Source: Pontiella sp.
GTDB taxonomy: Bacteria > Verrucomicrobiota > Kiritimatiellia > Kiritimatiellales > Pontiellaceae
Length of the DNA: 64,000 nt
Assembly (NCBI GenBank): GCA_050290185.1
Contig: JBNKHE010000004.1
Location: 192,001-256,000 of the forward strand
Reading direction: 5' to 3'
Under the pieces are notes generated by a model that had not been told where the DNA came from, searched no databases, and saw nothing but the letters and a program-made list of their open reading frames with translations. Of the stretch, positions 49,543 through 64,000 are shown one piece after another (position 1 is the first letter of the stretch; every line of letters starts with the position of its first letter). The position numbers and the translations under genes were made by a program.

Positions 49543-50226
49543 ATGAAACTCCACTATCTACAGCATGTCCCCTTTGAAGGGCTCGGCTACATCGAAGAGT
49601 GGGCACAGGCCCGGAACGTTCAAATCAGTTGCACCCGGCTGTTTGCCAACGAATCGTTGCCGGACACCGAAGACTTCGACTGGCTCGTCGTTATGGGCGG
49701 TCCGATGGGCATTTTCGACTATGCCGAACACCCTTGGCTTACGGCTGAAAAAAAATGCATTGAACGGGCCATCCACGCAGACAAAACGGTGGTCGGAATC
49801 TGCCTGGGGGCCCAGCTGATGGCTGATGTGCTCGGAGCAATAGTTTACCCCGGCCCGGAAAAGGAAATCGGATGGTTCCCGATCCTGCGGTCGGAAGACG
49901 CGCCGGAGCTGATCCCATCCCCTCTGACCGTCTTCCACTGGCACGGCGATACGTTTGACATTCCGGAGGGCGCAGTCGGACTGGCCACCAGTGAAGCAGG
50001 AATCAACCAGGGGTTCGTCTACAACCACAAAGCGGTTGCTCTGCAATTTCATATGGAAACCACGCCCGCCAGCATGAACGCCTTGATTCAAAACTGCGGT
50101 CACGAACTGGTCAATGCGCCCTATATTCAATCCGCCGGAGAAATGCGCAGCGGGCTTTCGAATATTCCATCCGTCAATGCCGCCATGGCAACCCTGCTCA
50201 ACAACCTGTTGCAAGTCCCCTGCTGA
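49543..50226 (+). CDS. Class I glutamine amidotransferase-like protein
   Basis: QHVPFEG, MGGPM, GICLGAQL, WHGDTF, QFHME. Confidence 0.9.
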   Translation: MKLHYLQHVPFEGLGYIEEWAQARNVQISCTRLFANESLPDTEDFDWLVVMGGPMGIFDYAEHPWLTAEKKCIERAIHADKTVVGICLGAQLMADVLGAIVYPGPEKEIGWFPILRSEDAPELIPSPLTVFHWHGDTFDIPEGAVGLATSEAGINQGFVYNHKAVALQFHMETTPASMNALIQNCGHELVNAPYIQSAGEMRSGLSNIPSVNAAMATLLNNLLQVPC

Positions 50227-50244
50227 TTCCATACGCTTCAACAC

Positions 50245-51177
50245 ATGTTAATCATCAACAGCATTGCCCCGATTTTCCTGCTGATCGCGCTCGGCAAGAT
50301 TCTGCAGAAAACAGCCTTCCTCCCGGACAGTTTCTTCAAGGGCCTGAACCGCTTTGTCTTCTGGTTTGCCCTGCCCGCCCTGCTAATCAGCAGCATTAGC
50401 GAAGCGAAGCTGGAGCTGACCGCCATCTCCCGGATTGTATTGCTACTGGCATGCGGCACCCTGCTGTCCATGTTGCTGGCATGGCTGCTCTCACGTCGGC
50501 TTTCGCTGCCAGCCCCGAAAACCGGCTCCTTCATCCAGGGTTCATTCAGGGGCAACGGCGCCTTCATCGCACTGCCCGTTATCACCTATTCCCTCGGCAC
50601 CATCGACCCGCAGGCCAAAACCCTCGCCACCGTCGTGCTCGCACCGGTCGTTGTCCTGTTCAATATGCTCGGAGTTCTCGTACTCACGCATTACAGCAGA
50701 AACAGAAAAAGTGCCGGCATATCGATCATTGCCGTGCTGACCGAACTGCTCAAGAATCCACTCATCATCGCCTGCGCGTCAGGCCTTGCTCTAAATCTGT
50801 TTCACCTGCATCTGCCGCAATTCCTGATCCGCCCCCTCGATGCGCTTGGGCACACGGCCCTTCCACTGGTACTCATGAGCATCGGGGCCTCCCTCGAATT
50901 TGAACGGTTGCGCGGCGCGGCATCACCCACACTGATCGCCTCGCTCATCAAAACCATGGCCGCACCGGCCTTCGGCTTCTTGCTGGCTGGGTGGTTCGGA
51001 CTCAGTCCGACGGAAAAACTGATCGCCATCTTCTATCTCGCGGCCCCCGCCGCCGGCATGTCGTACGTCATGGCCGAAGTGATGGGTAACGATGGCCCAT
51101 TGGCCGGTCGAATCGTCGCCTTCAGCACGTTGCTCTCCGCCGGCACCATCCCTATCATCATGGCCATTGGCTTATAG
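50245..51177 (+). CDS. AEC family transporter
   Basis: FALPAL, RGNG, KNPLII; multi-TM. Confidence 0.88.
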   Translation: MLIINSIAPIFLLIALGKILQKTAFLPDSFFKGLNRFVFWFALPALLISSISEAKLELTAISRIVLLLACGTLLSMLLAWLLSRRLSLPAPKTGSFIQGSFRGNGAFIALPVITYSLGTIDPQAKTLATVVLAPVVVLFNMLGVLVLTHYSRNRKSAGISIIAVLTELLKNPLIIACASGLALNLFHLHLPQFLIRPLDALGHTALPLVLMSIGASLEFERLRGAASPTLIASLIKTMAAPAFGFLLAGWFGLSPTEKLIAIFYLAAPAAGMSYVMAEVMGNDGPLAGRIVAFSTLLSAGTIPIIMAIGL

Positions 51178-51208
51178 CCCACCGACCTCCACACCAACCC
51201 GATACATC

Positions 51209-51237
51209 TTTACAAGTCCCCAAAAGCATCCTATTTT
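51209..51237 (+). promoter_or_regulatory. Candidate cassette promoter (Pc-like)
   Basis: TTTACA-N17-TATTTT directly upstream of the array. Confidence 0.55.
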
Positions 51238-51239
51238 CT

Positions 51240-51267
51240 GCCTAACACGGTAATTCGTGCGTTAGGT
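51240..51267 (+). other. attI-like / relic recombination site
   Basis: GCCTAACACGGTAATTCGTGCGTTAGGT with a GTTRRRY core at 51261, at the composition boundary. Confidence 0.45.
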
Positions 51268-51317
51268 GGACTTTCTCTACCTAATTAACTGTTTATTTCA
51301 AAAAAAAGGATAAATCT

Positions 51318-53318
51318 ATGTCCAATAACACAAAGAATATAAAAATTAGCATTAAATACTGTTTAGCAATTACAATTCTAATGGTCTGCAGCTCAGCCAA
51401 CGCGTACCAACAAATCTTTGTAGATAGAGATGGATCAGATACAAATAGTGGCTTGAGTGCTGACTCTCCGCTTCGAACATTCACTCAAGCAGTAACTAAT
51501 GCTAATTATGCGGTGTCAAATGATCACCCTGATGGTGTCGAAATTATTTTAGGACCAGGAAAATTTGATGAGACCACTCATAGTAAAACCAACACTTCGT
51601 GCGTAATCTGGAGACTAGCCAATAATGTTTCTGTCACGGGAGCAGGTTCTGGCAAGGGCACAAATTCAACACAAATTATAAATAACATCGTTCCAGATGG
51701 TTATTATTATTACATACTCCTATTGGAACCCGGAAATAATTCTAGAATTCAAGATCTCTCTATTATCAGCCATCCTCAAGAAATGATCAAAGGCGGAGTT
51801 ATCTGCATAGGATCATTTAGAGGCTGGCTATCTCAATTTCCCACATTATCTGAGGACCGTGTTTGTTTGCTTAAAAACATCTACATGGAATCGAATGATG
51901 CCGGAATTGGTATTGCTGGATATTATCCAGATCCCTACAGCTTAACATTCAATTGTTTTGATATGGATATCAATGTCGGAACTGATGGCGTTATTACCAC
52001 ATACCGTGATAACACCCGTATAAACTTGTTTAATTCGAGTGTGAAGGTGACAAGTTGGACTAACTCCATTCACGACCCACGAACTATTGGCTTAACAGCT
52101 ATTAATTCAAGTGCTGAAATATTTGCTTATAATACTTCTATTTGGGCAATTGATGATGCCCCCGACAATGGAGCAACGTATGCCGACAGTTACTGTGTCG
52201 CGGCCTTTGATGAAGGAGTAGTTCGCACTCATAACTGCAATTTCTATAAAAGCTCAGCAACCAATGCTGTTCAGAATTCTTCTCACCTTCATACTGATCA
52301 CACAATTAGCGCCGAGTATTATACAAATGGTATAATTGAACATTCCCTTAGTCGTTTCTTTATAGGAGATACAAATTTTAATATCGTTGCTTCTAATATT
52401 CATCCTGTAGTGCGAGGCTCTAATGATTATGAAGTAGTTAATCTTTACATTGACAAAGCAGCTGCCGGAAATATGACTGGAGTCGACTGGAATAATGCAT
52501 ATACAGATATTTATGATGCATTATCAAAGGTTGAGACTGGAGATTATACCCATGGAGCAAATTTGATCTTTGCGGGTGGTGATACACATACAGTTACCAA
52601 TGTGCTTAATCTTCCTTACGGAGTGTCCCTGATCGGTACTAACCCAACAAATTTAACAACAATATCGAATACCACTCCTACGTCCTGGACCTATCAGTTT
52701 TTGACACAATCCTCCAACTTCACAGTTCTTGCAAATCTAGATCTTCAAACTACAGGGTTGGGAAATCTTCTTATCGGAGGAGCAAACACCAATCAAGCTG
52801 CTACTGTAATTGATAATTGCCTAATGAGCTCTGACGACACAACAATTGGCTACATTGATGGTTATAAGCATGGCTCTATACTCTCCATTTTTAATTCGGG
52901 CATAATCAGTTCACTGAATGGCATCGCAACTTATGCTGAGCATTTAAATATTGTTTCACAGAACACTTACATTGCCGCAGAGGGTAACCATCCGAGTTAT
53001 CCAGGATATTCGTGCGGAGTTTATGCATCACATGCCCGAATTCACTTTTATGGCACGTCCTCAAGCAATTCAACTATTGCAACCGCAAATACTCAAAAAA
53101 ACACTCTCTATCCTTACAATGGGCCAGTCTTCTCGGATAATGCTCGGATCTATCTTGAGAACTACCACTTAGATACTTCTGAAATGAAGGATATTACTAA
53201 CTATACGATGAGAGCCGTTGGATTAACGGGTCATATACTTTATCGCAATTTAGACTTCTCACCCTCGATTACAACAAATGCATCATCGAGTATAACGGAA
53301 TTGGTTGATTTCGACTAA
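51318..53318 (+). CDS. Cassette ORF: secreted protein with two putative beta-helix modules
   Basis: Signal peptide; IFVDRDGSDTNSG..PLRTFTQAV and YIDKAAAG..GVDWNNAYTDIYDAL caps; Asn/Ser/Thr rich. Confidence 0.6.
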   Translation: MSNNTKNIKISIKYCLAITILMVCSSANAYQQIFVDRDGSDTNSGLSADSPLRTFTQAVTNANYAVSNDHPDGVEIILGPGKFDETTHSKTNTSCVIWRLANNVSVTGAGSGKGTNSTQIINNIVPDGYYYYILLLEPGNNSRIQDLSIISHPQEMIKGGVICIGSFRGWLSQFPTLSEDRVCLLKNIYMESNDAGIGIAGYYPDPYSLTFNCFDMDINVGTDGVITTYRDNTRINLFNSSVKVTSWTNSIHDPRTIGLTAINSSAEIFAYNTSIWAIDDAPDNGATYADSYCVAAFDEGVVRTHNCNFYKSSATNAVQNSSHLHTDHTISAEYYTNGIIEHSLSRFFIGDTNFNIVASNIHPVVRGSNDYEVVNLYIDKAAAGNMTGVDWNNAYTDIYDALSKVETGDYTHGANLIFAGGDTHTVTNVLNLPYGVSLIGTNPTNLTTISNTTPTSWTYQFLTQSSNFTVLANLDLQTTGLGNLLIGGANTNQAATVIDNCLMSSDDTTIGYIDGYKHGSILSIFNSGIISSLNGIATYAEHLNIVSQNTYIAAEGNHPSYPGYSCGVYASHARIHFYGTSSSNSTIATANTQKNTLYPYNGPVFSDNARIYLENYHLDTSEMKDITNYTMRAVGLTGHILYRNLDFSPSITTNASSSITELVDFD

Positions 53319-53360
53319 AAGCCGCAATCACACATCCAAAAAAATAGGAATAAATAGCAA

Positions 53361-53448
53361 GTCGAACCAGCTCATAGACCCTACTTGGACGACGCCCATC
53401 GATTCGGTCAAAGCCTGATTCCCAAGCGGATCATGAGTAACGTTGTGC
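53361..53448 (+). repeat. attC, family B
   Basis: GTCGAAC CAGCTCATAGACC..CTTGG..CCAAG..GATCATGAG TAAC GTTGTGC. Confidence 0.85.
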
Positions 53449-53554
53449 ACAGATAATTTATCGGAGATAAATAACGAGTGAAAAGAGAGGTTCAAACCGC
53501 ACAATCTATAGTGTCAAACGTTTATGCCCGCTCAGGTCACACGTAACGTTGGAA
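53445..53554 (+). repeat. Orphan 3' portion of a long family-A attC
   Basis: CAGATAATTTATCGGAGATAAATAACGAG...CAGGTCACACGTAACGTTGGAA without a 5' arm. Confidence 0.85.
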
Positions 53555-53570
53555 ATTAAAAGGAGAACAG

Positions 53571-54200
53571 ATGAAAAAATTATTGATAGGACTATCGGCT
53601 ATAGCGGCATCCACAGCTCTTGCATCCACAGTTGTACCCACAGAGCCTAAGGCCCAAGGAAAGAAACTGGCGGTACAGATAGTTAAAGTTGATTCAACCA
53701 AACATTACGACATGACATCTCCCGAATATCCCGACATTCTTCTAGCCCCAGATAAATTGCTAAGTGATGAATCCAATACGATAACACAATATCCAGTGTT
53801 ATATGGAGAACCTGGAACATCAGTTACAAATGATCAAACTGAAGCGATTAGCTATGTTGATGGCTATTCCATTGTTGAGGGAAAGGTAGTTCCTGAAGAA
53901 CACGTCCATAAGATTGGATTATTTATTTCTGCGGATATCTCCGAACTTAAAGGCAACGCAGTCAAACTAAACCTTAACATTCAAAATGAGCAGTTTTTTG
54001 GATATGACGAACAAACTGTGGACGGTAATCAGAAAGTGAAACTAGCCTTCTTCAACAGCCAAAGCCACAATACACCGATAACGTTGGCAATAGGAAACTG
54101 GCTAGTGCTCGGTGGCATATTGAATGAGACAACCAGTTCAAGTGCTATCTCACACACTTCTGTCTATCTGGTTCGCGTCATAGACCCATTGCAGGAATAA
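53571..54200 (+). CDS. Cassette ORF: secreted protein, possibly resembling a secretin C-terminal domain
   Basis: Signal peptide; KIGLFISAD, NTPITLAIGNWLVLGGIL, YLVRVID. Confidence 0.5.
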   Translation: MKKLLIGLSAIAASTALASTVVPTEPKAQGKKLAVQIVKVDSTKHYDMTSPEYPDILLAPDKLLSDESNTITQYPVLYGEPGTSVTNDQTEAISYVDGYSIVEGKVVPEEHVHKIGLFISADISELKGNAVKLNLNIQNEQFFGYDEQTVDGNQKVKLAFFNSQSHNTPITLAIGNWLVLGGILNETTSSSAISHTSVYLVRVIDPLQE

Positions 54201-54205
54201 AATAT

Positions 54206-54354
54206 TTCCAGCCAGCGCGTGGGGACCCTACGCGGCCGAAAGCGAAGCGACAGATAATTTATGAAAGAAATAACGAGAGAAACGAGTGGTTCAAAACGCA
54301 GAATTTTCATGCCTAACGCATAAGTCCCGCGCAGGTCACACGTAACCGTTCGGC
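54206..54354 (+). repeat. attC, long family A (R'' AAC>AGC)
   Basis: TTCCAGC CAGCGCGTGGGGACC...GGTCACACGTAACC GTTCGGC. Confidence 0.88.
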
Positions 54355-54365
54355 ATAAGGAAACA

Positions 54366-54713
54366 ATGAAAATACTATCCATCGTAACAATAAGTTCTCT
54401 TTTTCTTTTTGGATGCAATCCATCCTCTCAAAACAGCAAATGCATAAAGAAGATAGAGGTTAGCTCTGTCACTATTGTTGATCCAACCATTCCTACGGGC
54501 GTATCTGGGTCAACCAATACAAAAGGAGGACTATCCGAGGAAAGAGAATCTCCATACAAAACCTATTATAAAACTGACTTCAGTCACATTTACATCGAGT
54601 CAGATGAGGAATGGTTAAGAATAACCCGAGTATTCAAAAAATCCGGAGTAAAAGAAACAACGGTCGATTATTATAAGCCAGATTCGGTGATAAAATTTAC
54701 GACTAAAGATTAA
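54366..54713 (+). CDS. Cassette ORF: hypothetical lipoprotein
   Basis: Lipobox LFGC; AAGGA RBS. Confidence 0.7.
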   Translation: MKILSIVTISSLFLFGCNPSSQNSKCIKKIEVSSVTIVDPTIPTGVSGSTNTKGGLSEERESPYKTYYKTDFSHIYIESDEEWLRITRVFKKSGVKETTVDYYKPDSVIKFTTKD

Positions 54714-54722
54714 ACATAATGA

Positions 54723-54812
54723 GCCGAACCAGCGCGTGGACCTTACGCGGTAAAACGCACAGTTTTCATGCCCAACGCATAAGTCCCGCGCAGGTCACAC
54801 GTAACGTTCTTG
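54723..54812 (+). repeat. attC, short family A
   Basis: GCCGAAC CAGCGCGTGGACCTTACGCGGTAAAACGCAC...GGTCACACGTAAC GTTCTTG. Confidence 0.92.
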
Positions 54813-54829
54813 CGGACGCTGCGCTTGCC

Positions 54830-54924
54830 GCAGAACCAGGCCGCTGCACCAACATTCCGGCTGGCCGTCCGCAGGCTCCGCCTGCTACCGTCCACCCGGA
54901 AAGTTGGTGAGCGCCGCATTAGAA
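54830..54924 (+). repeat. attC of the ORF-less cassette (unrelated family; R' GTT>ATT)
   Basis: GCAGAAC CAGGC CGCTGCACCAACATTCCGG...CCGGAAAGTTGGTGAGCG CCGC ATTAGAA. Confidence 0.85.
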
Positions 54925-54935
54925 ACGGAGATAAT

Positions 54936-55439
54936 ATGACGGAAGAAACAAAACAGAAGTTTATAGATCATCCTGCACCCAGCATCGGCTTGTTTACGCT
55001 TCTCGTTGTAATTATCTGCTTTCTGATTACCGTAATCCCAATGGCAATATCGGACATGCCCAAAGAAGAGCTTGGTTCACCTTCCGCAATCGGAATTTAT
55101 GCTGTCCTTGGCTTTGCGATTGCCATCCTGTGTTTCTACCTGTGGCCACTCTACACCACATATTACATCGTTGATGATAATGGCATAACGATAAAATATG
55201 GTCCATGGACACGTGTATCCCAATGGAATGAATTCAAAATGGTATATTGGCAAAAGGGGATGTTTGTCTCAAAGATCGGGGTGCCTTCTATCACCCCATG
55301 TGTACGCCTCTCAAATGGTCTTGTCCTTCCAAGGAAACACAAGACATGGGGACTATACATTACCCCAAATGATCCGGAAGCATTCATCCGTAAGATCGAG
55401 TTGTTTGCTCCAGAATTAACCAAAGAGATGATAAAATAG
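54936..55439 (+). CDS. Cassette ORF: membrane protein with bacterial PH-like domain
   Basis: Two TM segments then TTYYIVDDNGITIKYGPW...YITPNDPEAF; GGAG RBS. Confidence 0.7.
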   Translation: MTEETKQKFIDHPAPSIGLFTLLVVIICFLITVIPMAISDMPKEELGSPSAIGIYAVLGFAIAILCFYLWPLYTTYYIVDDNGITIKYGPWTRVSQWNEFKMVYWQKGMFVSKIGVPSITPCVRLSNGLVLPRKHKTWGLYITPNDPEAFIRKIELFAPELTKEMIK

Positions 55440-55442
55440 GAT

Positions 55443-55590
55443 TTCTAACCAGCGCGTGGACCTTACGGGACCGCATGCGCATCGCAGATAATTTATCGGA
55501 GATAAATAACGAGTGAAACGAGAGGTTCAAACCGCACAGTTTTCATGCCTGACGTTGGTAGTCCCGCGCAGGTCACACATAACGTTGGAT
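55443..55590 (+). repeat. attC, long family A
   Basis: TTCTAAC...GGTCACACATAAC GTTGGAT. Confidence 0.92.
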
Positions 55591-55612
55591 GCAGAAAACA
55601 AGGAGAGTAAAG

Positions 55613-56041
55613 ATGGAAGACAAAGTTTCAGAAGAGCAAGAATTTCATGCAGGGCAAGCATCAACTCCGGCTGTAGAGGTTGCGCCCACACCCGAATCGT
55701 CGCCGATTGCTGGATTTACTAATGAGCAAAGAACGCTTGCGCTCTGCGCATATCTGATCCCGTTAGTAACCAGTTCAAACTTCATTGCTCCCCTCATTAT
55801 CTGGCTGTTAAAAAAAGGTGAAGACTCATACGTCGAAAATCATGCCAAGGAATCGCTCAACTTTCAGATTACGTTTGTGATCTTTGTCTTCGTTGCATGG
55901 CTGAGCATCTTTTTATTAATAGGTGCACTTTTGTTCCCTGCAGTCATAATCACTTATATAGTTTTTGGCATCATTGCCTGCGTCAAAGCGTACAAGGGTG
56001 AAGAATACAGAATCCCACTCTGCATCCGCTTCATCAAATAG
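55613..56041 (+). CDS. Cassette ORF: DUF4870-like membrane protein
   Basis: PLIIWLLKK, HAKESLNFQIT, KAYKGEEYRIPL. Confidence 0.85.
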   Translation: MEDKVSEEQEFHAGQASTPAVEVAPTPESSPIAGFTNEQRTLALCAYLIPLVTSSNFIAPLIIWLLKKGEDSYVENHAKESLNFQITFVIFVFVAWLSIFLLIGALLFPAVIITYIVFGIIACVKAYKGEEYRIPLCIRFIK

Positions 56042-56083
56042 TCAAAAAATACCATAAGAAGACCTCTTCAGATAAATAAGGAC

Positions 56084-56229
56084 ATCCAACCAGCGCGTGG
56101 ACCTTACGCGGCCGCACGCGCAGCGCAGATAATTTATCGGAGATAAATAATGAGTGAAACGAGAGGCTCAAAACGCACAATCTATCGTGCCAAACGTTTA
56201 TTTCGCGCAGGTCACACGTAGCGTTGGCT
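56084..56229 (+). repeat. attC, long family A
   Basis: ATCCAAC...GGTCACACGTAGC GTTGGCT. Confidence 0.92.
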
Positions 56230-56256
56230 TTCATAAAATCCTAAAAGGAGCAAGCA

Positions 56257-56511
56257 ATGGAAATTGAACAAATTATTATCACATTAGTTATAGGTGGTGT
56301 TGCGGGCTGGCTAGCTGGAATTCTCTTCAAGGGAGGGGGATTCGGCCTCGTTGGAAATATAATTGTAGGGTTGCTTGGAGCCGTGTTAGGAGGATGGTTA
56401 TTTAGAGTTCTTAATATTTCAGTTGGTGGTGAATGGGTAGGCCCAATTGTTACATCGACGATAGGAGCAATCGTTCTCCTCTTTGCGATAAGCTTCGTGA
56501 AAAGGAAATAG
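56257..56511 (+). CDS. Cassette ORF: GlsB/YeaQ/YmgE (transglycosylase-associated) protein
   Basis: IGGVAGWLAG..GLVGNIIVGLLGAVLGG..IGAIVLL. Confidence 0.88.
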   Translation: MEIEQIIITLVIGGVAGWLAGILFKGGGFGLVGNIIVGLLGAVLGGWLFRVLNISVGGEWVGPIVTSTIGAIVLLFAISFVKRK

Positions 56512-56599
56512 CCAACCAGCGCCTGAACCTTACGCGGTAAAACGCACAATTTTCATGCCTAACGCATATGTCCCGCGCAGGTTACACGTAACGTTCGGT
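56510..56599 (+). repeat. attC, short family A
   Basis: AGCCAAC...GGTTACACGTAAC GTTCGGT. Confidence 0.88.
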
Positions 56600-56609
56600 A
56601 AAAACATAA

Positions 56610-56936
56610 ATGAAGCAACCCATATCAACCTCTGAAACTCGACCCAAACGGAATCGACTGTTGTTTATGTCCACACTAGTTGCTCTTACTGGATTTTTTG
56701 GAATTCCTCTCACGTTCCAAATAATCGCCAAGGCAGACTTCTTCAGTATTCTTTTCTTTCTGCCATGCATTCCTCTGATGTTCAACCTAATCGGACTAGG
56801 CTTAGTTGCTTGCGATAAACTCAAGACAAAGGGACTCATTATTTACCTAATTCCATGCTTCATTCTATCATTTTTCGTAATAGCAGGCACAGCCGGCATG
56901 CTCCACTTCTTTATTGTGTATGAATCAATGCCCTAG
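56610..56936 (+). CDS. Cassette ORF: hypothetical membrane protein
   Basis: Three hydrophobic segments; fills the cassette. Confidence 0.65.
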   Translation: MKQPISTSETRPKRNRLLFMSTLVALTGFFGIPLTFQIIAKADFFSILFFLPCIPLMFNLIGLGLVACDKLKTKGLIIYLIPCFILSFFVIAGTAGMLHFFIVYESMP

Positions 56937-56969
56937 AAAGATGAACAAAACATCTCCAATAATAATGAA

Positions 56970-57064
56970 ACCGAACCAGGGCATGGACCCGACAGAGTCC
57001 GGCAGTTAATTTAACGGCAAAGAACCACTCCCCCCATTTTTGCGGGTCACGCCTAACATTAGAC
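56970..57064 (+). repeat. attC (R' GTT>ATT)
   Basis: ACCGAAC CAGGGCATGGACCCG...CGGGTCACGCC TAAC ATTAGAC. Confidence 0.85.
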
Positions 57065-57072
57065 AAAAATAG

Positions 57073-57630
57073 ATGATTAATCTCCGTCCATTCCAATCCT
57101 CAGACATTTCCTGTTTTAATGAGTTCTCAGGGGATGATTGGACGGTTTTTAATTGGTTGGATGAGATCGGGCGGCCGATTATAAAGGAAAAGTTTTTGAA
57201 AGATCTAGAGAACCCTGAGTTGCATTCTTACATCGCGGTTGAATCGAACCAGCAAGAAGTCGTCGGGCATCTTCAAATAAAAGAAATGGAACCAGGAGTT
57301 GGTCGCTTTCACAGGTTTGTAGTAAGCAAAAAAGAGAAAAGAAGAAAAGGAATTGGAAGAGATATATTGTCCCAAGCGCTTAAAATCGCGTTCGAAGAAT
57401 TTGAGTTCGACCTGATGACTCTGGGAGTTTTTGATATTAATACTCCAGCAATCAGTTTCTGCGAATCTATGGGCTTTCAACCACACTCCTCAAAGTTGAT
57501 TGATTATCGCTTTAACGATAATCTCACCCACCCTTTGAATATGACGCTCCCGAAAGAAAATTGGGAGTCTAACAAGGCATGTGAGAGGAATGCCGAGATC
57601 GCTCCCGCTCCTCGCCATCTCTCCACTTGA
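57073..57630 (+). CDS. Cassette ORF: GNAT acetyltransferase (reads through its attC)
   Basis: RRKGIGR, LGVFDINTPAISFCESMGF. Confidence 0.85.
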   Translation: MINLRPFQSSDISCFNEFSGDDWTVFNWLDEIGRPIIKEKFLKDLENPELHSYIAVESNQQEVVGHLQIKEMEPGVGRFHRFVVSKKEKRRKGIGRDILSQALKIAFEEFEFDLMTLGVFDINTPAISFCESMGFQPHSSKLIDYRFNDNLTHPLNMTLPKENWESNKACERNAEIAPAPRHLST

Positions 57631-57638
57631 CGTTGGGC
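57567..57638 (+). repeat. attC (short, degenerate, unrelated family)
   Basis: GTCTAAC AAGGCATGTGAGAG...CTCTCCACTTGAC GTTGGGC. Confidence 0.75.
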
Positions 57639-57649
57639 AAAGAAAAAAT

Positions 57650-58255
57650 ATGTACATACCTGATAGATTTAAGATGAATGACAGGGAGGTAGTTAATACC
57701 TTCATTCGTAAGCATAATTTCGGACTGCTTGTCACAACCGACGGAAAAACCATCGATGAGACCTTAACACCCTTCCTAATTTCAGAAACCGAAGAGTGTC
57801 TGTACGGCCATATTGCACGGGCAAACCCGCAATGGACGAAATGGGATGACTCAACAATAGCCAAAGTGATGTTCACCGGCCCTCATTCTTATATTTCCCC
57901 AAAGTTTTATGAGTCTGAATTGAACGTACCGACGTGGAATTATACGGCGGTTTCAATCAGCGGAGAAATTAAGACCCAAAATAACAGGCCTGAAATTATT
58001 GAATTTCTAGATGCCTTGGTTACCCAACATGAAGCACCGGAAGCTCCATGGAATCTAGATAAAGATGATGAACGCTATATGAAGCTACTCGACGGGATCG
58101 TTGTCTTCAGACTCCAAATTAAGGATGTCGAAGCATCGTATAAATTAAACCAAAATAAGAAAGTAGAGGATCAGTTGAGTGTTATAGCGGCTCTGGAAAG
58201 TTCAGATAATCCAATTGATAACGAAGTTGCTAAAATGATGAAGCAGAACATATAA
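57650..58255 (+). CDS. Cassette ORF: PaiB-like FMN-binding regulator
   Basis: MYIP, GHIARANPQW, GPHSYISP, VPTWNY, KLNQNK. Confidence 0.9.
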   Translation: MYIPDRFKMNDREVVNTFIRKHNFGLLVTTDGKTIDETLTPFLISETEECLYGHIARANPQWTKWDDSTIAKVMFTGPHSYISPKFYESELNVPTWNYTAVSISGEIKTQNNRPEIIEFLDALVTQHEAPEAPWNLDKDDERYMKLLDGIVVFRLQIKDVEASYKLNQNKKVEDQLSVIAALESSDNPIDNEVAKMMKQNI

Positions 58256-58257
58256 TA

Positions 58258-58406
58258 GCTCAACCAGCGCGTGGAGCTTACGCAGCCGCACGCGTAGCGC
58301 AGATAATTTATCGGAGATAAATAACGAGTGAAACGAGCGGTTCAAAACGCACAATTTTCATGCCCACAACACAGAAGCCCCGCGCAGGTCACACGTAACG
58401 TTTCAG
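58258..58406 (+). repeat. attC, long family A
   Basis: GCTCAAC...GGTCACACGTAAC GTTTCAG. Confidence 0.92.
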
Positions 58407-58416
58407 GAGAGAAAAT

Positions 58417-58758
58417 ATGAACAAAATATGCATCTATGCTTCTTTGTTAATTCTACTGTTGAGCGGATGCACAACACCCGAAATACAAATAGAGAAAGCT
58501 TCAGCTTTATCCCAAGAAAAAATCGAAATTATGAGAGAGCAAGTTCAGGAAGATTTACAGCAATATCAAATGCAGCAGATCAGAGCTGGTCTGCCACCCC
58601 TCCCCATTCCTCTGACCGAAGAAAACATTGCTCGCATTCAATCTGAACTAAAAGCACATACAGAAAAACCAGAGGTTTATGTTGAGGCAAAAACAACCCC
58701 TGAACTACAAAAAATGATACACGACTCCATCGTTCGTGGAATGCAGCAAGCAGATTAA
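58417..58758 (+). CDS. Cassette ORF: hypothetical lipoprotein
   Basis: Lipobox LSGC; AGGAG RBS. Confidence 0.7.
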   Translation: MNKICIYASLLILLLSGCTTPEIQIEKASALSQEKIEIMREQVQEDLQQYQMQQIRAGLPPLPIPLTEENIARIQSELKAHTEKPEVYVEAKTTPELQKMIHDSIVRGMQQAD

Positions 58759-58764
58759 AAATTT

Positions 58765-58855
58765 TGCCAACCAGCGCGTGGACCTTACGAGGTAAAACGC
58801 ACAATCTGTCGTGCCAAACGTTTATGTCCCGCGCAGGTCACACGTAACGTTCTGA
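58765..58855 (+). repeat. attC, short family A
   Basis: TGCCAAC...GGTCACACGTAAC GTTCTGA. Confidence 0.9.
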
Positions 58856-59054
58856 CATATATTATTGATTTTTTTACAGCATGTGTATTTGCCTGATAAT
58901 AACAGTTTTTCTTAGAAATAAACATAGTTTCGATTCGGGTTTTGCAGATACCAACTCAATAGCTTAGCGAGCACAATATTTGCATCATAGACAGGCCAGC
59001 AAATATGTTTCCATTTAGGAAAATGCAGGTAAAACATTAGTATTAGGAGGTTTT

Positions 59055-59756
59055 GTGAAGAAATGTAAGTTCGTGGCGTTGTTGGCCTTCATGGCATTTG
59101 TGGGAATATCATCGGCTGATTTAGTAAGTATCACTGTCAGGGGGAAAGCTGACACAACTAAAATGGGATATTTATCTGGTCATAGTTACAGCTTTACTTG
59201 GGTTCTCAATGATACATATACCGGCAGTCCTTGGGATGAATATTCTGCTTCTAAAAATCAATGGTATGTTCAAGAATCCATTTACCCGGCACTGTGGGAC
59301 TCAGTTCACGGAAGCGGGTTATCTGGAACGTACGTCCGTCCCTCACCATGGAATGAGGACTACTTGTCTATAAATTCTCAACTTGATACGGATCAAGTAA
59401 ACTTAACCGCCGAAGCACCCGTTACCGACATCGGTCTTACCGTGAACGGCGTCAAAGTGGCATGGGTTGCGGCTATAAATCTTCGGTTTAGTGAATTTTC
59501 ATTTCCGGAGACATTCTCTAACCCTGCAAATTATATGACAGGATATTTAGGGACATATACACCGAGTGATGGATTTATGCGCGTCGGAGACATAAATGGT
59601 AACAACATCTACTTTACTGCGACCAGTGTAGAAGTAGTTCCGGAGCCGTCGAGCGCGTTGCTGCTGGTGGTCGGTTCTGGCGGCATCCTGCTCTATCGCC
59701 GCACGAGGGAACGTCATCAAACCGAGATTCCCTCCCGCCGACATTTCTTCCAGTAG
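59055..59756 (+). CDS. Cassette ORF: PEP-CTERM protein
   Basis: Signal peptide; VPEPSSALLLVVGSGGILLYRR; AGGAGG RBS. Confidence 0.88.
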   Translation: MKKCKFVALLAFMAFVGISSADLVSITVRGKADTTKMGYLSGHSYSFTWVLNDTYTGSPWDEYSASKNQWYVQESIYPALWDSVHGSGLSGTYVRPSPWNEDYLSINSQLDTDQVNLTAEAPVTDIGLTVNGVKVAWVAAINLRFSEFSFPETFSNPANYMTGYLGTYTPSDGFMRVGDINGNNIYFTATSVEVVPEPSSALLLVVGSGGILLYRRTRERHQTEIPSRRHFFQ

Positions 59757-59845
59757 TTCATGGAGGGCTGATCTTGTATTGTCCTTAGGTCGTAATAGAG
59801 CCGTGGGGGTTATTATACATTGTCATGACGAGCAGGGATAACGTT

Positions 59846-59856
59846 TCAGAACCAGC
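59846..59856 (+). repeat. Truncated attC (R'' and spacer only)
   Basis: TCAGAACCAGC, complementary to GTTCTGA at 58849; similarity then stops. Confidence 0.6.
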
Positions 59857-60040
59857 CAAACCATAAAGATGTCCTCTATCTCCCCCACTCCCTTCAATTC
59901 ACACCTAGTAAAATCTACTAAATAATCACCAATGGTGTATTTGATGACTCACAAAGAAATTGACTAAACTAATTGTATTTTATGGGGAGTAATGACTCAA
60001 ACTTGCTCGACCAAAGACGTTAGTCTGAAAAAACAAATGA

Positions 60041-60188
60041 ATCGAACCCGTGCGTGGACCTTACACGGCCTCACGCGCAGCGCAGATAATTGATCGGAGA
60101 TAAATAACGAGTGAAACGAGAGGCTCAAAACGCACAATCTATCGTACCAAACGCTTATTTCCCGCGCAGGTTAAACGTAACGTCCGAC
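60041..60188 (+). repeat. attC, long family A (degenerate, R' GTC)
   Basis: ATCGAAC CCGTGCGTGGACC...GGTTAAACGTAAC GTCCGAC. Confidence 0.85.
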
Positions 60189-60255
60189 GAAAGAAAAATT
60201 TAAGAAACCTGCCTAATGCAGAGATTTGAAAACATTAAAATTATAAGGAGATAGA

Positions 60256-60471
60256 ATGAAAAAAATCGGCGGTACAATATTCTTTTTTGGAGCGGGATCC
60301 ATAGTTCTATATTTTGTGCATATGGAATTTATCATCTTATCTTGGATTGACATGTGGGGCCCTTTAGTCGGTTGGATAATTCGAGGAGTGTTACTTGTGG
60401 TTGGTGGTGTTCTTTGGCTCATTGGAAGGCCTGATACGGAACAAAAACGACAGTCTGAATTTGCAGAATAA
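60256..60471 (+). CDS. Cassette ORF: small membrane protein
   Basis: AGGAG RBS; two TM segments, WIDMWG. Confidence 0.75.
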   Translation: MKKIGGTIFFFGAGSIVLYFVHMEFIILSWIDMWGPLVGWIIRGVLLVVGGVLWLIGRPDTEQKRQSEFAE

Positions 60472-60476
60472 TTTAT

Positions 60477-60624
60477 ATCGAACCAGCGCGTGGACCTTGC
60501 GCGGTCGCACGCGCTGCGCAGATAATTTATCTGCGATAAATAACGAATGAAATGAGAGGTTCAAACCGTACAATCTATCGTGCCAAATGCTTATTTCCCA
60601 CGCGGGTCACGCCAAACGTTAGGC
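60477..60624 (+). repeat. attC, long family A
   Basis: ATCGAAC...CGGGTCACGCCAAAC GTTAGGC. Confidence 0.92.
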
Positions 60625-60645
60625 ACCTATAAAAAAGGAACAAAA

Positions 60646-60917
60646 ATGAAAAACAGATCAAACGAATATCAGTCGCCCAAACTAGTAAAATCATTGTGAT
60701 TTTATACGTAGTATTCAGCCTGCTGTATTCTCTAATCGGTATTCCAATGATTATCTTTGGTGGTTCTGAAATGAAGATAATGGGCTTCATGTATCTCTTC
60801 ATGCCAATTCTCGCAGGCATCTTTGGGTTTATCGGTTGCTGGGTTTACAACCTGGTTGCAGGGAAATTCGGTGGTGTTGAATTTGAAGTAAAAGACATTG
60901 GAGAAACAATGGCCTAA
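60646..60917 (+). pseudogene. Cassette ORF frameshifted at 5' A-run (DUF3566-like membrane protein)
   Basis: AGGA RBS then ATG AAAAA CAG; one extra A restores MKKQIKRISVAQTSKIIVILY...YNLVAGKFGGVEFE. Confidence 0.7.
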
Positions 60918-60999
60918 CCAGGTCATTGACCCTACTTGGACAACGCCCGTTTTTGAAGGCAAAGTCTGAGTTCCAAGAAGGTCACACGTAACGTTCGAC
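60912..60999 (+). repeat. attC, family B/A chimera
   Basis: GCCTAAC CAGGTCATTGACCCTACTTGG...CCAAGAAGGTCACACGTAAC GTTCGAC. Confidence 0.85.
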
Positions 61000-61014
61000 T
61001 GAGAGGAACATTAT

Positions 61015-61758
61015 ATGATCAAACCAAAAACATTCGTATCTTCAGTAATCCTAACCATGGTTGCGTTAATCTCTCAACATGCTGACGGACAGGTATTGTT
61101 TGGCAGCACCAACGATGGTTCCGGCTCTGGAACTCATTCAGCAGGGCATTTAACCGGACATATAATCTACGTTTCTGAAGAAGCCATCCTCACCCATATC
61201 GGCATCATTTTTGATCAGCCTGGAGGAACGTGCAGAGCAGGAATATACGCAGACTCGGAAGACCAGCCCGGGAAATTACTTGGCGAGATTCCTGCGCTTC
61301 GCATACGTGATCGCGGAGCTACGGAACTTCCCATTGCCGAACCACTGGTTTTATCCCCTGGTAACTACTGGGTTATGATTGCATGTAACCGAGATACGAA
61401 GATTTCAAAGTCACAATCAGCTTCAACCAAGGTTTGTTATCGTCCCTTTGTCTTTGACGAAACCATGCCGGATCCCATAGGTATAACAACTAATTATATG
61501 ACGACCTCAACCGAAGACGTTTATCTCAAGTGCAACTATATTAAAGAAGACGTCTGCCCTTTCTCCTCGGCACCAGCAGGAGAGATTTACTTCCCAACAA
61601 TCAAAGGGAAAGTATATCAGGTTCAGTTTACAGAAGATATAGAATCACCCAACTGGCAACCTTTTGCACCTCCCTTTACGGCAACCGGAGCAAACACCAA
61701 TATATTTTTCTCAACACGCAATACACCAAAACGGCGGTACCGGGTTATTGTAAAATAG
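61015..61758 (+). CDS. Cassette ORF: secreted hypothetical protein
   Basis: Signal peptide; C-terminal YQVQFTEDIESPNWQ...RYRVIVK. Confidence 0.75.
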   Translation: MIKPKTFVSSVILTMVALISQHADGQVLFGSTNDGSGSGTHSAGHLTGHIIYVSEEAILTHIGIIFDQPGGTCRAGIYADSEDQPGKLLGEIPALRIRDRGATELPIAEPLVLSPGNYWVMIACNRDTKISKSQSASTKVCYRPFVFDETMPDPIGITTNYMTTSTEDVYLKCNYIKEDVCPFSSAPAGEIYFPTIKGKVYQVQFTEDIESPNWQPFAPPFTATGANTNIFFSTRNTPKRRYRVIVK

Positions 61759-61763
61759 AATTA

Positions 61764-61899
61764 GTCGAACCAGCGTGTGGACCTTACGCGAGCGCAGATA
61801 ATTTATCAGAGAAAAAACGAGTGAAGCGAGAGGCTCAAAACGCACTCTCCGTCGTGCCTGACGTTGATGGTCCCGCGCAGGTCACACCAGACGTTCGCT
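61764..61899 (+). repeat. attC, long family A (internal deletion)
   Basis: GTCGAAC...GGTCACACCAGAC GTTCGCT. Confidence 0.9.
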
Positions 61900-61911
61900 A
61901 ACAGGAATATT

Positions 61912-62574
61912 ATGATACAAAAATTAATCAAGAACACTCTGATCCCAACGCTGACCTTAATCGGATTAGCAGGATGCCAAGTTTACCATCATGCCGAAAT
62001 TTCTGGGAACGTAATTCACGACCCACAGCTAGGTTGGAATGGTTATACTGTGAATATTCCAGACGGTTACTACATTATACCAAAAAAGGTCGCAGCCGCA
62101 TCAGCTGGCCCCCTTGAGCATCCGGTTAACTGGTTGGTGAAGGAACGCGATATTTACACGCTCTCTCTAGCACTCAATTTTGATGAGCGCTTTCTATTTA
62201 AGAGCGATGATGAGCAATCATACATTTTATTTGCTTCTGAGCGGCTCGATTTTATCAAGAGCCTCAATCAATTCTCAACCGTAATAAAAAAGAGAGTAAT
62301 GTATAATATAAGGGACTACCAAAAGGTCCGGTTAAATGACAGCGATGCATTGTTCGAGCAAATGACCATCAACGGCATGATGGCCTGCCGCGTAAGCGGA
62401 CGGCTACGGCCCTATTTCAAAAAGAATTATCCCACGATTTTTTATGAAGGTTATTTTTTCCTAGGCCACTTAAACGAAACTTTTTGGGTTGAGGGGATTT
62501 CATCGGCAAAAGGTCGAACTGAGCTGCAACGCGGAGTAAAAGAGATGGCGGAAAGCCTGATGAATCCATTATAA
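61912..62574 (+). CDS. Cassette ORF: hypothetical lipoprotein
   Basis: Lipobox LAGC; AGGA RBS before ATG 61912. Confidence 0.72.
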   Translation: MIQKLIKNTLIPTLTLIGLAGCQVYHHAEISGNVIHDPQLGWNGYTVNIPDGYYIIPKKVAAASAGPLEHPVNWLVKERDIYTLSLALNFDERFLFKSDDEQSYILFASERLDFIKSLNQFSTVIKKRVMYNIRDYQKVRLNDSDALFEQMTINGMMACRVSGRLRPYFKKNYPTIFYEGYFFLGHLNETFWVEGISSAKGRTELQRGVKEMAESLMNPL

Positions 62575-62583
62575 TTCAAGATA

Positions 62584-62732
62584 AGCGAATCAGCGCGTGG
62601 ACCTTACGCGGGGCATACGCGCAGCGCAGATAATTTATCGGAGATAAATAACGAGTGAAACGAGAGGTTAAAAACGCATGATTTTCATGCCAGACGTTTA
62701 TGAGCAGCGTCGGGTCACACGTAGCGTTGGGA
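62584..62732 (+). repeat. attC, long family A (R'' AAC>AAT)
   Basis: AGCGAAT CAGCGCGTGGACC...GGTCACACGTAGC GTTGGGA. Confidence 0.9.
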
Positions 62733-62742
62733 GAATGTAAAC

Positions 62743-63537
62743 ATGAAAGTATATCATATTGATGCATTCACCGACGACCTGTTTAAGGGGAATCCTGCTG
62801 GAGTTATCATTCTGAACAATGACGACATCAGCGATGCTCTCAAACAGAGCATCGCAAGAGAATTGAAGCACTCAGAGACTGCGTTTGTCCTCATAAAAGA
62901 AGGACATGTAAATTTAAGGTGGTTTACACCGGAGCGGGAAGTTGACCTTTGTGGTCATGCAACCATTGCGTCAGCTCATATCTTATGGGAGTCTGGAGTA
63001 TTTGATTCTCAGGAGAAAGTGGACTTCCAAACTAGATCAGGCACTCTTCGAGCTATTCACAATAGAGGGAAAATTGAATTGGATTTCCCTCAGCTGTTTG
63101 TAGATGAATGTGAGCAAAACATAATCCTAAACGAAGCTTTTAGGATAGAGCCAGTTTATACGGGAAAGAACTCCAAAAGATACCTGCTCCAAATAGAGAG
63201 TCCTGATGAGCTTAGAAAATTACAGCCTGATTTTGAGTTGCTGAAGAAAGCAGATCTTGGAGCATTCATGATAACCTGCAGATCAGATCGACCGGGTTAT
63301 GATTTTCTTTCGCGATTCTTTGCCCCATGTGTTGGAATTCATGAAGACCCGGTTACCGGATCTGCACATTGTTACCTTGCTCCATACTGGGGTAGGATTC
63401 TCAATAAAAAAACCATGGTTGGTTTTCAGGAATCAAGCCGTACAGGAATCGTTGAATGTGAGCTCCAGGAAAAACATAGATTAAAAATATCAGGACAAGC
63501 TAAAACTGTATTTGAAGCTGAAATGAATATCACCTAA
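62743..63537 (+). CDS. Cassette ORF: PhzF family isomerase
   Basis: IDAFT..FKGNPA, SETAF, EVDLCGHAT, EDPVTGSAHC. Confidence 0.92.
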   Translation: MKVYHIDAFTDDLFKGNPAGVIILNNDDISDALKQSIARELKHSETAFVLIKEGHVNLRWFTPEREVDLCGHATIASAHILWESGVFDSQEKVDFQTRSGTLRAIHNRGKIELDFPQLFVDECEQNIILNEAFRIEPVYTGKNSKRYLLQIESPDELRKLQPDFELLKKADLGAFMITCRSDRPGYDFLSRFFAPCVGIHEDPVTGSAHCYLAPYWGRILNKKTMVGFQESSRTGIVECELQEKHRLKISGQAKTVFEAEMNIT

Positions 63538-63595
63538 CCAGAGCATTCACCCTATCGTTTTCTCCGCGCGCTCAGGGTGATGCTTAACGTTGGCC
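63532..63595 (+). repeat. attC, 64 bp unrelated family
   Basis: ACCTAAC CAGAGCATTCACCCT...AGGGTGATGCT TAAC GTTGGCC. Confidence 0.9.
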
Positions 63596-63606
63596 AGAAA
63601 TAACAA

Positions 63607-64000
63607 ATGAACATTACGAAACTAACAGAAGCTGATCTCCCAGCCCTTGCATCTCTCTACACGCAATTCTGGGGCGAAGAGTCATCAGTGGATAAAATGC
63701 AGTCCACATTTGCTAAACTCCAAGATAATCCTGACTACACCTTCTTAGCAGCACGTCTTGATGATCAAATTGTTGGCTCTGTAATGGGTGTAGTTTGTCA
63801 TGAGCTATACGGGGACTGTAAACCATTCATGGTCGTTGAAGATATGATAATTGATAAGACTGTACGACGGCAAGGTATCGGTTCCCTTTTAATGAATTCA
63901 ATTGAGGAAAAAGCGAAAGAGAGAGAGTGCTGTCATCTTATATTAGTGACCGATACAGACCGATATGATGCACGTCAGTTCTATGAGTCATTGGGATTTG
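63607..64000 (+). CDS. Cassette ORF: GNAT acetyltransferase (partial)
   Basis: Manual translation MNITKLTEADL...VEDMII..RRQGIG..ARQFYESLGF. Confidence 0.85.
   Translation, partial: MNITKLTEADLPALASLYTQFWGEESSVDKMQSTFAKLQDNPDYTFLAARLDDQIVGSVMGVVCHELYGDCKPFMVVEDMIIDKTVRRQGIGSLLMNSIEEKAKERECCHLILVTDTDRYDARQFYESLGF

Follow-up and report, generated by a model that had tools for sequence, protein, structure and literature searches.

Why do some attC sites of a single integron cassette array carry an extra block of about 58 bp that can be drawn as three small hairpins? We examined this question in a 64,000-nucleotide stretch of a Pontiella sp. genome (GCA_050290185.1, contig JBNKHE010000004.1, positions 192,001 to 256,000). 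This whole stretch, hereafter the window, is G000:C4:192001-256000, where G000 is the genome of the window; other G numbers denote genomes and L numbers denote loci. From 53.3 kb of the window onward, attC sites separate mostly short one-gene cassettes, which carry GNAT, DUF4870, Transgly_assoc, FMN-binding and PhzF genes. A preliminary description had proposed that the block is a selected single-stranded DNA (ssDNA) structure, possibly one that tunes strand selection or recombination, or a tiny element that targets attC. Our analysis indicates that the block is very probably a copy of a tiny, gene-less mobile insertion element that is restricted to one bacterial order, folds as ssDNA, does not belong to the integron and is most likely non-autonomous and moved in trans. 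We do not regard it as a part of attC because most members of its family lie outside attC and because both strands of attC are hit.

A three-hairpin element inside and outside attC sites

The attC sites concerned, family A, occur in two forms. Recomputing their boundaries returned the lengths and positions given before, with short sites of 90, 90 and 91 bp, long sites of 146-149 bp and one site of 136 bp at 61764. The block does lie between TTACGCGG and AAAACGCAC, as described, but it is not a pure insertion, as a T of the short form is replaced. The block-bearing sites are not an assembly artefact, because contigs from four DNA runs of a single study, which may have sequenced the source sample, are identical to the window across several copies, with difference-free matches at, for example, 53454-54331, 56553-58325 and 61507-62646. 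Rfam gave no match at E ≤ 5 in window 50000-64000.

Family members are 47-60 nt long and read CCGAA-GCGNAGC-AGATA-hairpin-A-hairpin-GGTTC|A. The consensus consists of a left end CC or CT followed by GAA, hairpin 1 (GC-GNA-GC), a linker (C)AGATA, hairpin 2 (ATTT...AAAT, 6-7 bp), an A, hairpin 3 (2-6 bp) and a right end GGTTC. In the best-scoring copy (58286..58343, plus strand, E 3.8e-16), which lies in a 149-bp attC at 58258..58406 (plus strand), the left end CC at 58286 is followed by hairpin 1 (GC-GTA-GC, 58292-58298), the linker AGATA, hairpin 2 (58306-58322, GGA loop), hairpin 3 (58324-58338, tandem G.A pairs and a GAA loop) and the right end GGTTC (58339-58343), after which comes a host A.

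Across 82 distinct model-fitted sequences, 87.8% of cells were paired and 13 of 17 pairs had two-sided changes; none of 500 shuffles reached the observed pairing, slid controls gave 30-46%, and an unfitted MAFFT alignment of 19 sequences was 95% paired, all of these pairing and covariation statistics being uncorrected for relatedness. The covariation proposed from the window copies is thus real, but it becomes visible only in the wider family. The change from GT-GAA-AC to AT-GAA-AT at 60477 is present in the sequence, as are both closing-stem variants (58258 and 60041); the closing stem itself is weak, with 82% pairing over its 2 bp and almost no compensation (one cell), and its outer pairs draw on host bases. 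At the centre of hairpin 3, tandem GA/AG was found in 24 of 41 distinct forms and Watson-Crick pairs in most others, and the metagenome set described below gave 28 tandem GA/AG centres versus 13. Because tandem GA/AG alternates with Watson-Crick pairs, the G.A pairs are structural, and they exist on one strand only.

The loops of 246 distinct hairpins comprised 122 GNA, 44 ANA, 20 ANC, 3 TNC, 27 other triloops and 30 non-triloops; the ANA and ANC loops are presumably sheared DNA triloops. Triloops and tandem G.A pairs point to an ssDNA structure. GNA mini-hairpins have far greater stability as DNA than as RNA and, among 64 triloops compared, only GNA forms a 2-bp mini-hairpin (PMC13037366; here and below, papers are cited for the sections consulted). 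A selected, strand-specific ssDNA structure is therefore supported by covarying stems, triloops and tandem G.A pairs. When single copies were folded with nearest-neighbour energies, they did no better than shuffles (z -0.27 to -1.77), under parameters that contain no GNA bonus and assign GNA and TNC loops the same energy.

The family is found mostly outside attC. A 68-base query matched 16 of 61 genomes, and 25 of 26 non-self loci in relatives were outside attC by eye. A pattern scan of 185,579 genomes returned 70 loci, of which 5 chance matches (stemless, with titles from outside the PVC bacteria), 6 without a readable left end and duplicates were set aside; 57 of the remaining 58 distinct full elements were outside attC and one inside, again by eye. 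Titled records assigned 63 of the 70 loci to PVC bacteria, many named Kiritimatiellales, Pontiella or Tichowtungia. A metagenome scan yielded 82 loci, with 67 of 72 distinct rows structured; none of these 67 (the other 5 were dropped) matched an attC regular expression, a count of zero that is approximate, as the expression missed one known attC context (L089). Viral contigs gave no matches to the element pattern or to that of a sister family described below. A covariance-model search, as the preliminary description had advised, located the element inside and outside attC. It returned 20 hits in G000 at E<1e-3 (14 on the attC top strand, 1 on the attC bottom strand and 5 elsewhere) and at least 40, 23, 8, 1 and 1 copies in five near-complete relatives, with 150 candidates scored per genome. 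In a phylum sample searched with stricter filters, 8 of 9 genomes of the same order and none of 141 others contained the element. The idea of a tiny attC-targeting element therefore survives as to the tiny element and not as to attC specificity.

REP-like (repetitive extragenic palindromic) palindromes and tandem repeats serve as hosts, as do a nuclease-like gene and a kinase; copies also lie nested within one another, in matching orientation. From translated motifs that we recognised, rather than from a family search, we take IS110, IS91-like, IS66-like and group II intron genes to be further hosts. The 55-base copies at L067, L085, L095, L056, L093 and L081, found in tandem repeats of coding sequence or in a kinase gene, would by their length add a net +54 in frame. 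Within attC, one top-strand position is a hot spot that is used in at least four genomes (G000, G011, G071 and G072) by at least four different element variants. Bottom-strand insertions occupy two other positions (C1:9269 and C4:257528), and likewise in G071 and G072, so that a polarity opposite to the recombining strand, as proposed earlier, is not supported as a rule.

Insertion junctions and the candidate enzyme

We compared filled and empty sites to define the junctions. Insertion proceeds without target duplication and converts S-N-A to S-element-A, with base N lost; position -1 (G27, C26 and A5 of 58) is the sole constrained position of the left flank. IS110 copies in G044, 91-99% alike, have G-A-A-T at the empty site (L179-L181) and G-element-A-T at the filled one (L174). 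For the nuclease-like gene, the empty form G-A-A-A occurs in 10 usable homologous loci as well as in G000 C11, and the filled form G-element-A-A in L153, one misaligned locus having been left out. The attC sites lose a T (84 of 92 short sites read TAAA), tandem-repeat hosts lose one A, and restoring one base restores the long reading frames of filled hosts. Together, the IS110, nuclease-gene, attC and tandem-repeat pairs indicate that one target base is replaced and that nothing is duplicated.

The scar has a second component. Where the empty site has a G after the A, the filled copy usually has a C, in five contexts: a REP loop (9 of 12 rows, AGC when empty and ACC when filled), a second site in the same REP, the end of an intron open reading frame (ORF; 7 of 9 empties AAG), a maturase lysine codon (3 empties) and, judging by its partner arm, probably the bottom-strand attC at C4:257528. 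A G directly follows the element end in 2 of 123 flank clusters, versus 554 of 1909 (29%) in the genome background.

These junctions bear on how the element might move. We propose that the ssDNA of the element folds into three triloop hairpins between the fixed ends CC/CT...GGTTC and that a host or selfish HUH nuclease of the Y1 type would mobilise it in trans. Such an enzyme would cut the C|A right end and join it to the target A, and the left junction would form after the loss of one base. We favour this reading because ssDNA-specific folding, polar exact ends, the lack of duplication and the C|A right end all fit it; the HUH nuclease is nevertheless a candidate enzyme only, to which we assign somewhat less than an even chance of being the mover. 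Next to hairpins, TnpA-REP enzymes cleave ssDNA at C|T and at C|A (PMC8266576), the latter being the dinucleotide at the end of the element, and they can add units through primed copying (PMC8266576, PMC3333891). Y1 genes were present in six of six genomes searched.

Several observations weigh against this proposal. The element flanked no Y1 or integrase gene in 38 loci (best E 0.11) and none of the 34 Y1 loci considered alone, which covered 30 of 41 Y1 hits of the six-genome search. No longer, autonomous version occurred among the fetched loci, and 12 clusters of copies had no neighbouring gene in common. There is no strict replication-strand polarity, as window copies lie on the C-rich strand and other G000 copies on either strand. 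Among the sequencing-run joints listed, none skips exactly the element, and no movement was seen directly. HUH insertions are to our knowledge conservative, and we know of none that accounts for the lost base or the G-to-C change; one filled site (L384) retains its G. The scar fits no transposition mechanism that we found.

Two other ideas were rejected. Lagging-strand-template polarity fails as a strict rule, with hits also alternating along G076 contigs, and a T-loop-like, tRNA-related origin of the GGTTCA end fails because the element ends at that point and lacks tRNA arms. The RAYT-like (REP-associated tyrosine transposase) Y1 genes at G000 C10:123019 and on C58 have AAAGGGGTCAG/CTGACCCCTTT inverted-repeat flanks, which are TIRtron-like and unrelated in sequence to the element.

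We considered whether an RNA intermediate might instead serve to copy the element, in a target-primed reaction by a group II intron or another reverse transcriptase. Such copying could yield small target deletions and junction changes; in-gene insertions are mostly in the sense orientation (19 of 24 by naive ORF calls), the upstream gene lies on the same strand in 39 cases versus 22, and group II introns are frequent hosts. We nevertheless think it unlikely, as the loops are triloops and not RNA tetraloops, both ends are exact and there is no poly(A) or other 3' tail. In addition, r(GCGAAAGC) melts at 39 °C, whereas the DNA melts at 76.5 °C (PMC13037366).

Alternatively, no dedicated enzyme might be involved, and ssDNA annealing, template switching or gene conversion at forks could spread fragments preserved as exonuclease-resistant mini-hairpins. 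Mini-hairpins are nuclease resistant and bind single-strand-binding protein poorly (PMC13037366). Homologous sites are filled recurrently in distant genomes, and copies with the same flanks exchange internal hairpins. The G-to-C change could then stem from an unrepaired C.C mismatch, with a circular or tandem donor supplying the C after GGTTCA; C.C mismatches are known to escape repair. The absence of flank homology beyond S-N-A and the exactness of the ends leave this explanation with little probability in our view.

A recombinase with a one-base core, either of the IS110/IS1111 type or an integron integrase acting on a hairpin substrate, would agree with the lack of target duplication, the GTT within the right end and the presence in the order of IS110 copies and two IntI genes. 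This appears quite improbable, given that the junction is not at G|TT, that flank composition reveals no common 14-nt guide-like sequence in the targets and that conservative recombination would retain base N.

Filled attC sites and the window array

How does the element affect the attC sites that carry it? G000 has 13 top-strand filled attCs versus 92 short ones. Among full family-A sites in the short or top-filled form, 9 of 12 are filled in the window array and 4 of 93 elsewhere, three of these four being distal in the C1 array. Decay is more advanced in filled sites, with zero box mismatches in 2 of 13 versus 78 of 92 short sites and intact AAC/GTT cores in 9 of 13 versus 91 of 92. This contrast is inflated, because a conserved end served as the anchor for cataloguing short attCs, and two long sites score 13 mismatches through indels.

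On the main idea of the preliminary description, the block is a selected substructure of attC; by misfolding or by marking the top strand, it would adjust the choice of strand or the rate of recombination. The block does recur at the same attC position in at least four genomes, and the sequence of the variable terminal structure (VTS) affects strand selectivity (PMC5027507). We find this function very hard to uphold, as the family lies mostly outside attC and on the bottom strand too, the filled form is rare and sits in decayed sites, and the block brings no consistent folding gain. Bottom-strand fold probability did not differ between filled and short sites (medians 0.027, n=9, and 0.092, n=90; p=0.37). 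When the block was deleted in silico from six sites, the bottom/top ratio followed no common direction, whether or not a GNA bonus of 2-3 kcal/mol was applied; with the bonus, the filled form was less selective at three sites, equal at two and more selective at one. That the long form is instead the ancestral VTS, from which short attCs arose by deletion, is scarcely credible: long forms do occur in old, distal or integrase-less arrays, but unrelated hosts share identical ends and the one-base scar, at least four element variants occupy the one attC position, deletion could not restore the T, and the IS110 and nuclease-gene filled/empty pairs contradict it.

With the block read as a mobile element, it would be a tolerated passenger of old cassettes rather than a tuner. 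The nine-copy run in an integrase-less array would reflect a hot spot in attC, located at the base of the VTS, where insertion would spare the integrase boxes. Seven window copies represent one variant on two different attC right arms, which suggests that a filled founder was copied or converted among attCs, besides recurrent insertion. A founder of this kind may have been copied during cassette formation or attC-attC conversion, adding to hot-spot insertion. Long VTSs reduce recombination from double-stranded DNA (PMC5027507), and filled sites may be slower and accumulate in old arrays.

The copies in the window array, all on the plus strand, differ in condition. A 5'-truncated element (53445..53493) lies in a half attC (53445-53554, the right arm reaching about 53554) directly after the R' of a complete attC (53365-53444); remnant and right arm together form a gene-less cassette behind that complete attC. 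A filled attC of 149 bp with a damaged R'' (54206..54354) holds an element of the second subfamily with left end CCGAAAGCGAAGCGAC (54236..54292), and a 90-bp empty attC (54723..54812) retains the target GG-T-AAAA. At 54806-54929, an ORF-less mini-cassette with a GTTCTTGCGG...CCGCAGAAC hairpin precedes a decayed attC from a different family, whose top strand has a TCC loop at 54877-54879; the start of this mini-cassette recurs after four attCs in G000. The main subfamily is represented at 55471..55528, with a damaged first hairpin, in a 148-bp attC (55443..55590), and at 56112..56169 in the 146-bp attC of the DUF4870 cassette (56084..56229), whose homologue in G071 bears a different, nested composite at the same attC position. 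The Transgly_assoc cassette has an empty attC of 90 bp (56510..56599); in G071, a cassette with 91% identity to it (L270/L089) has elements on both strands of its attC.

Further along, a 91-bp attC (58765..58855) is empty, and the ORF-less cassette that ends in a 148-bp attC with R' GTC (60041..60188) carries a main-subfamily element (60069..60126); its paralogs at G000 C15:2001 and C1:2713, 87-88% identical, have empty attCs, and the cassette (59845-60188) is promoter-like. The element at 60505..60562, in a 148-bp attC (60477..60624), has a compensatory A-T pair in hairpin 3 and decayed hairpin 1 and 2 loops. The remnant at 61791..61836, in the 136-bp attC (61764..61899), lost its left end between two ACGCG repeats, probably through slippage deletion. 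Both ends are mutated in the copy at 62612..62670, in a 149-bp attC with R'' ATC (62584..62732). The pattern is broken by the copies at 60477, with GCT and TGC loops, and 55443, with a broken first stem, and AAC or GTT cores are damaged at 54206, 60041 and 62584.

The array terminates near C4:258.6 kb. G000 encodes two integron integrases above the TIGR02249 cut-off, one of them divergent from an array on C5. Because both lie on contigs other than C4 and none adjoins the window array, this array is a cluster of attC sites lacking integron integrases (CALIN). The integrases, at C5:3602 and C3:254837, lie in open frames of 460-463 aa, compared with a model of 315 positions. An anchor search located 151 attC right ends across G000, a few of them false or partial. 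The sites have the R''-5 nt-L''...L'-6 nt-R' geometry of attC, with an AAC/GTT core, extrahelical bases on L'' and G.T wobbles on the bottom strand, so that the top and bottom strands had been assigned correctly. Short attCs fold better as bottom strand (-18.6/-12.9/-16.6 kcal/mol) than as top strand (-17.4/-10.7/-13.8 kcal/mol). In family A, the first extrahelical base on the bottom strand is C, only 5 bp from the second; the usual base is G. In the arrays on C1, C3, C4, C5 and C7, the attC bottom strand is always on the G-rich strand and would be the lagging-strand template if the G-rich strand is leading. Such an orientation is the minority among large sedentary arrays (PMC5371416), and G000 has about 150 attCs despite it.

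Other hairpin families are also present. Sister three-hairpin elements ending GGCA|A nest with the element at G000 C4:256042-256274, C1:9745-9941 and C11:23245 and at L127, L210 and L303; one sister motif matched 3 of 151 genomes of the class, one of them outside the order. A second family of REP-like hairpins (CCTTCGC..AAGCT..GG) occupies a further attC hot spot, directly 3' of GCAC (G000 C1:11150-11210 and C4:258560; L013, L045 and L283).

Relation to known elements and significance

To place the element, we compared it with described systems. Like REPs, REPINs (REP doublets forming hairpins) and bacterial interspersed mosaic elements, with their RAYTs (PMC3116915, PMC8266576, PMC3333891, PMC3733652), it is small, gene-less hairpin DNA with ssDNA-type structure, both intergenic and intragenic, clustered, nested and lineage-limited. 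Unlike REPs, its alignments contain no terminal GTAG/CGTC tetranucleotide at a palindrome foot; it has three different hairpins with polar ends in place of a palindrome or inverted doublet, and tens of copies where REPs have hundreds. Nor does it flank RAYT or Y1 genes as in REPtrons (34 Y1 loci, none below E 0.11). The sections of the REP and RAYT papers that we compared describe neither the one-base replacement nor the G-to-C scar.

It is also like IS200/IS605 derivatives in being ssDNA that is strand-polar, with subterminal hairpins and no target duplication, and we take its right end TTCA to resemble their ends TCAA/TTCAA. These elements, whose non-autonomous derivatives include PATEs (palindrome-associated transposable elements), have a conserved 4-5 nt target on their left and insert conservatively, with no base lost. 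Unlike them, our element has no conserved tetra- or pentanucleotide on the left, only -1 being constrained; its insertion is non-conservative, one base being lost, and no parent insertion sequence was found. The guide mechanism of IS200/IS605 is described in PMC8266576. In its working, the element resembles a REP/REPIN or an IS200/IS605 derivative and lacks the features that define either.

Other assignments fail as well. IS91 and ISCR elements have a GTTC or CTTG target tetranucleotide beside them; our element ends in GTTC, but its left flanks lack GTTC/CTTG. Miniature inverted-repeat transposable elements are set apart by terminal inverted repeats and target-site duplications, both absent here. 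IS1111-attC elements and group IIC-attC introns, likewise selfish DNA inside attC, encode their own enzyme and are attC-specific, whereas the present element is 55 nt long, gene-less and promiscuous. Like an attC VTS (PMC5027507, PMC5371416), the block lies between the L boxes, is branched and accounts for attC length variation, and filled sites of 146-249 bp exceed the range of 57-141 bp given in the sections consulted. Unlike an ordinary VTS, its sequence is that of an independent mobile element, confined neither to attC nor to one strand, so it is not a selected VTS module. The GCGNAGC and CCGAAGG motifs also occur in d(GNA) mini-hairpins of phage G4/ssiA priming sites and N4 promoters as protein-read ssDNA signals (PMC13037366); here they are parts of an insertion element, with no sign of a priming or promoter role. 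Full-text literature searches covering main texts gave no account of the element family, of Kiritimatiellales attCs or repeats, or of a one-base-replacing bacterial element; the many repeat families listed in the supplements of PMC3733652 could bear on novelty.

The observation is thus real, and we reinterpret the block as a small mobile hairpin DNA whose insertion leaves an unusual scar. It is conceivable, although we consider it doubtful, that it represents a new minimal class of ssDNA mobile element: 55 nt long, inserting by substitution (one base removed, a downstream G changed to C) through an enzyme or pathway unlike those of IS200/605, REP-RAYT, IS91 and IS110, and building, with its GGCA|A sisters, long branched attC terminal structures and nested intergenic repeats.

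How REP-like hairpin repeats enter new sites is an open question, largely for want of clean filled/empty pairs. The element family offers many such pairs from a cultured genus, in which the ends are exact and the scar is diagnostic, and a candidate enzyme can thus be tested against a sharp prediction. It also provides a concrete origin for long branched attC terminal structures, in which a parasite inserts, nests and is then copied together with its attC, and it naturally marks attC sequences, so that their copying during cassette formation can be traced.

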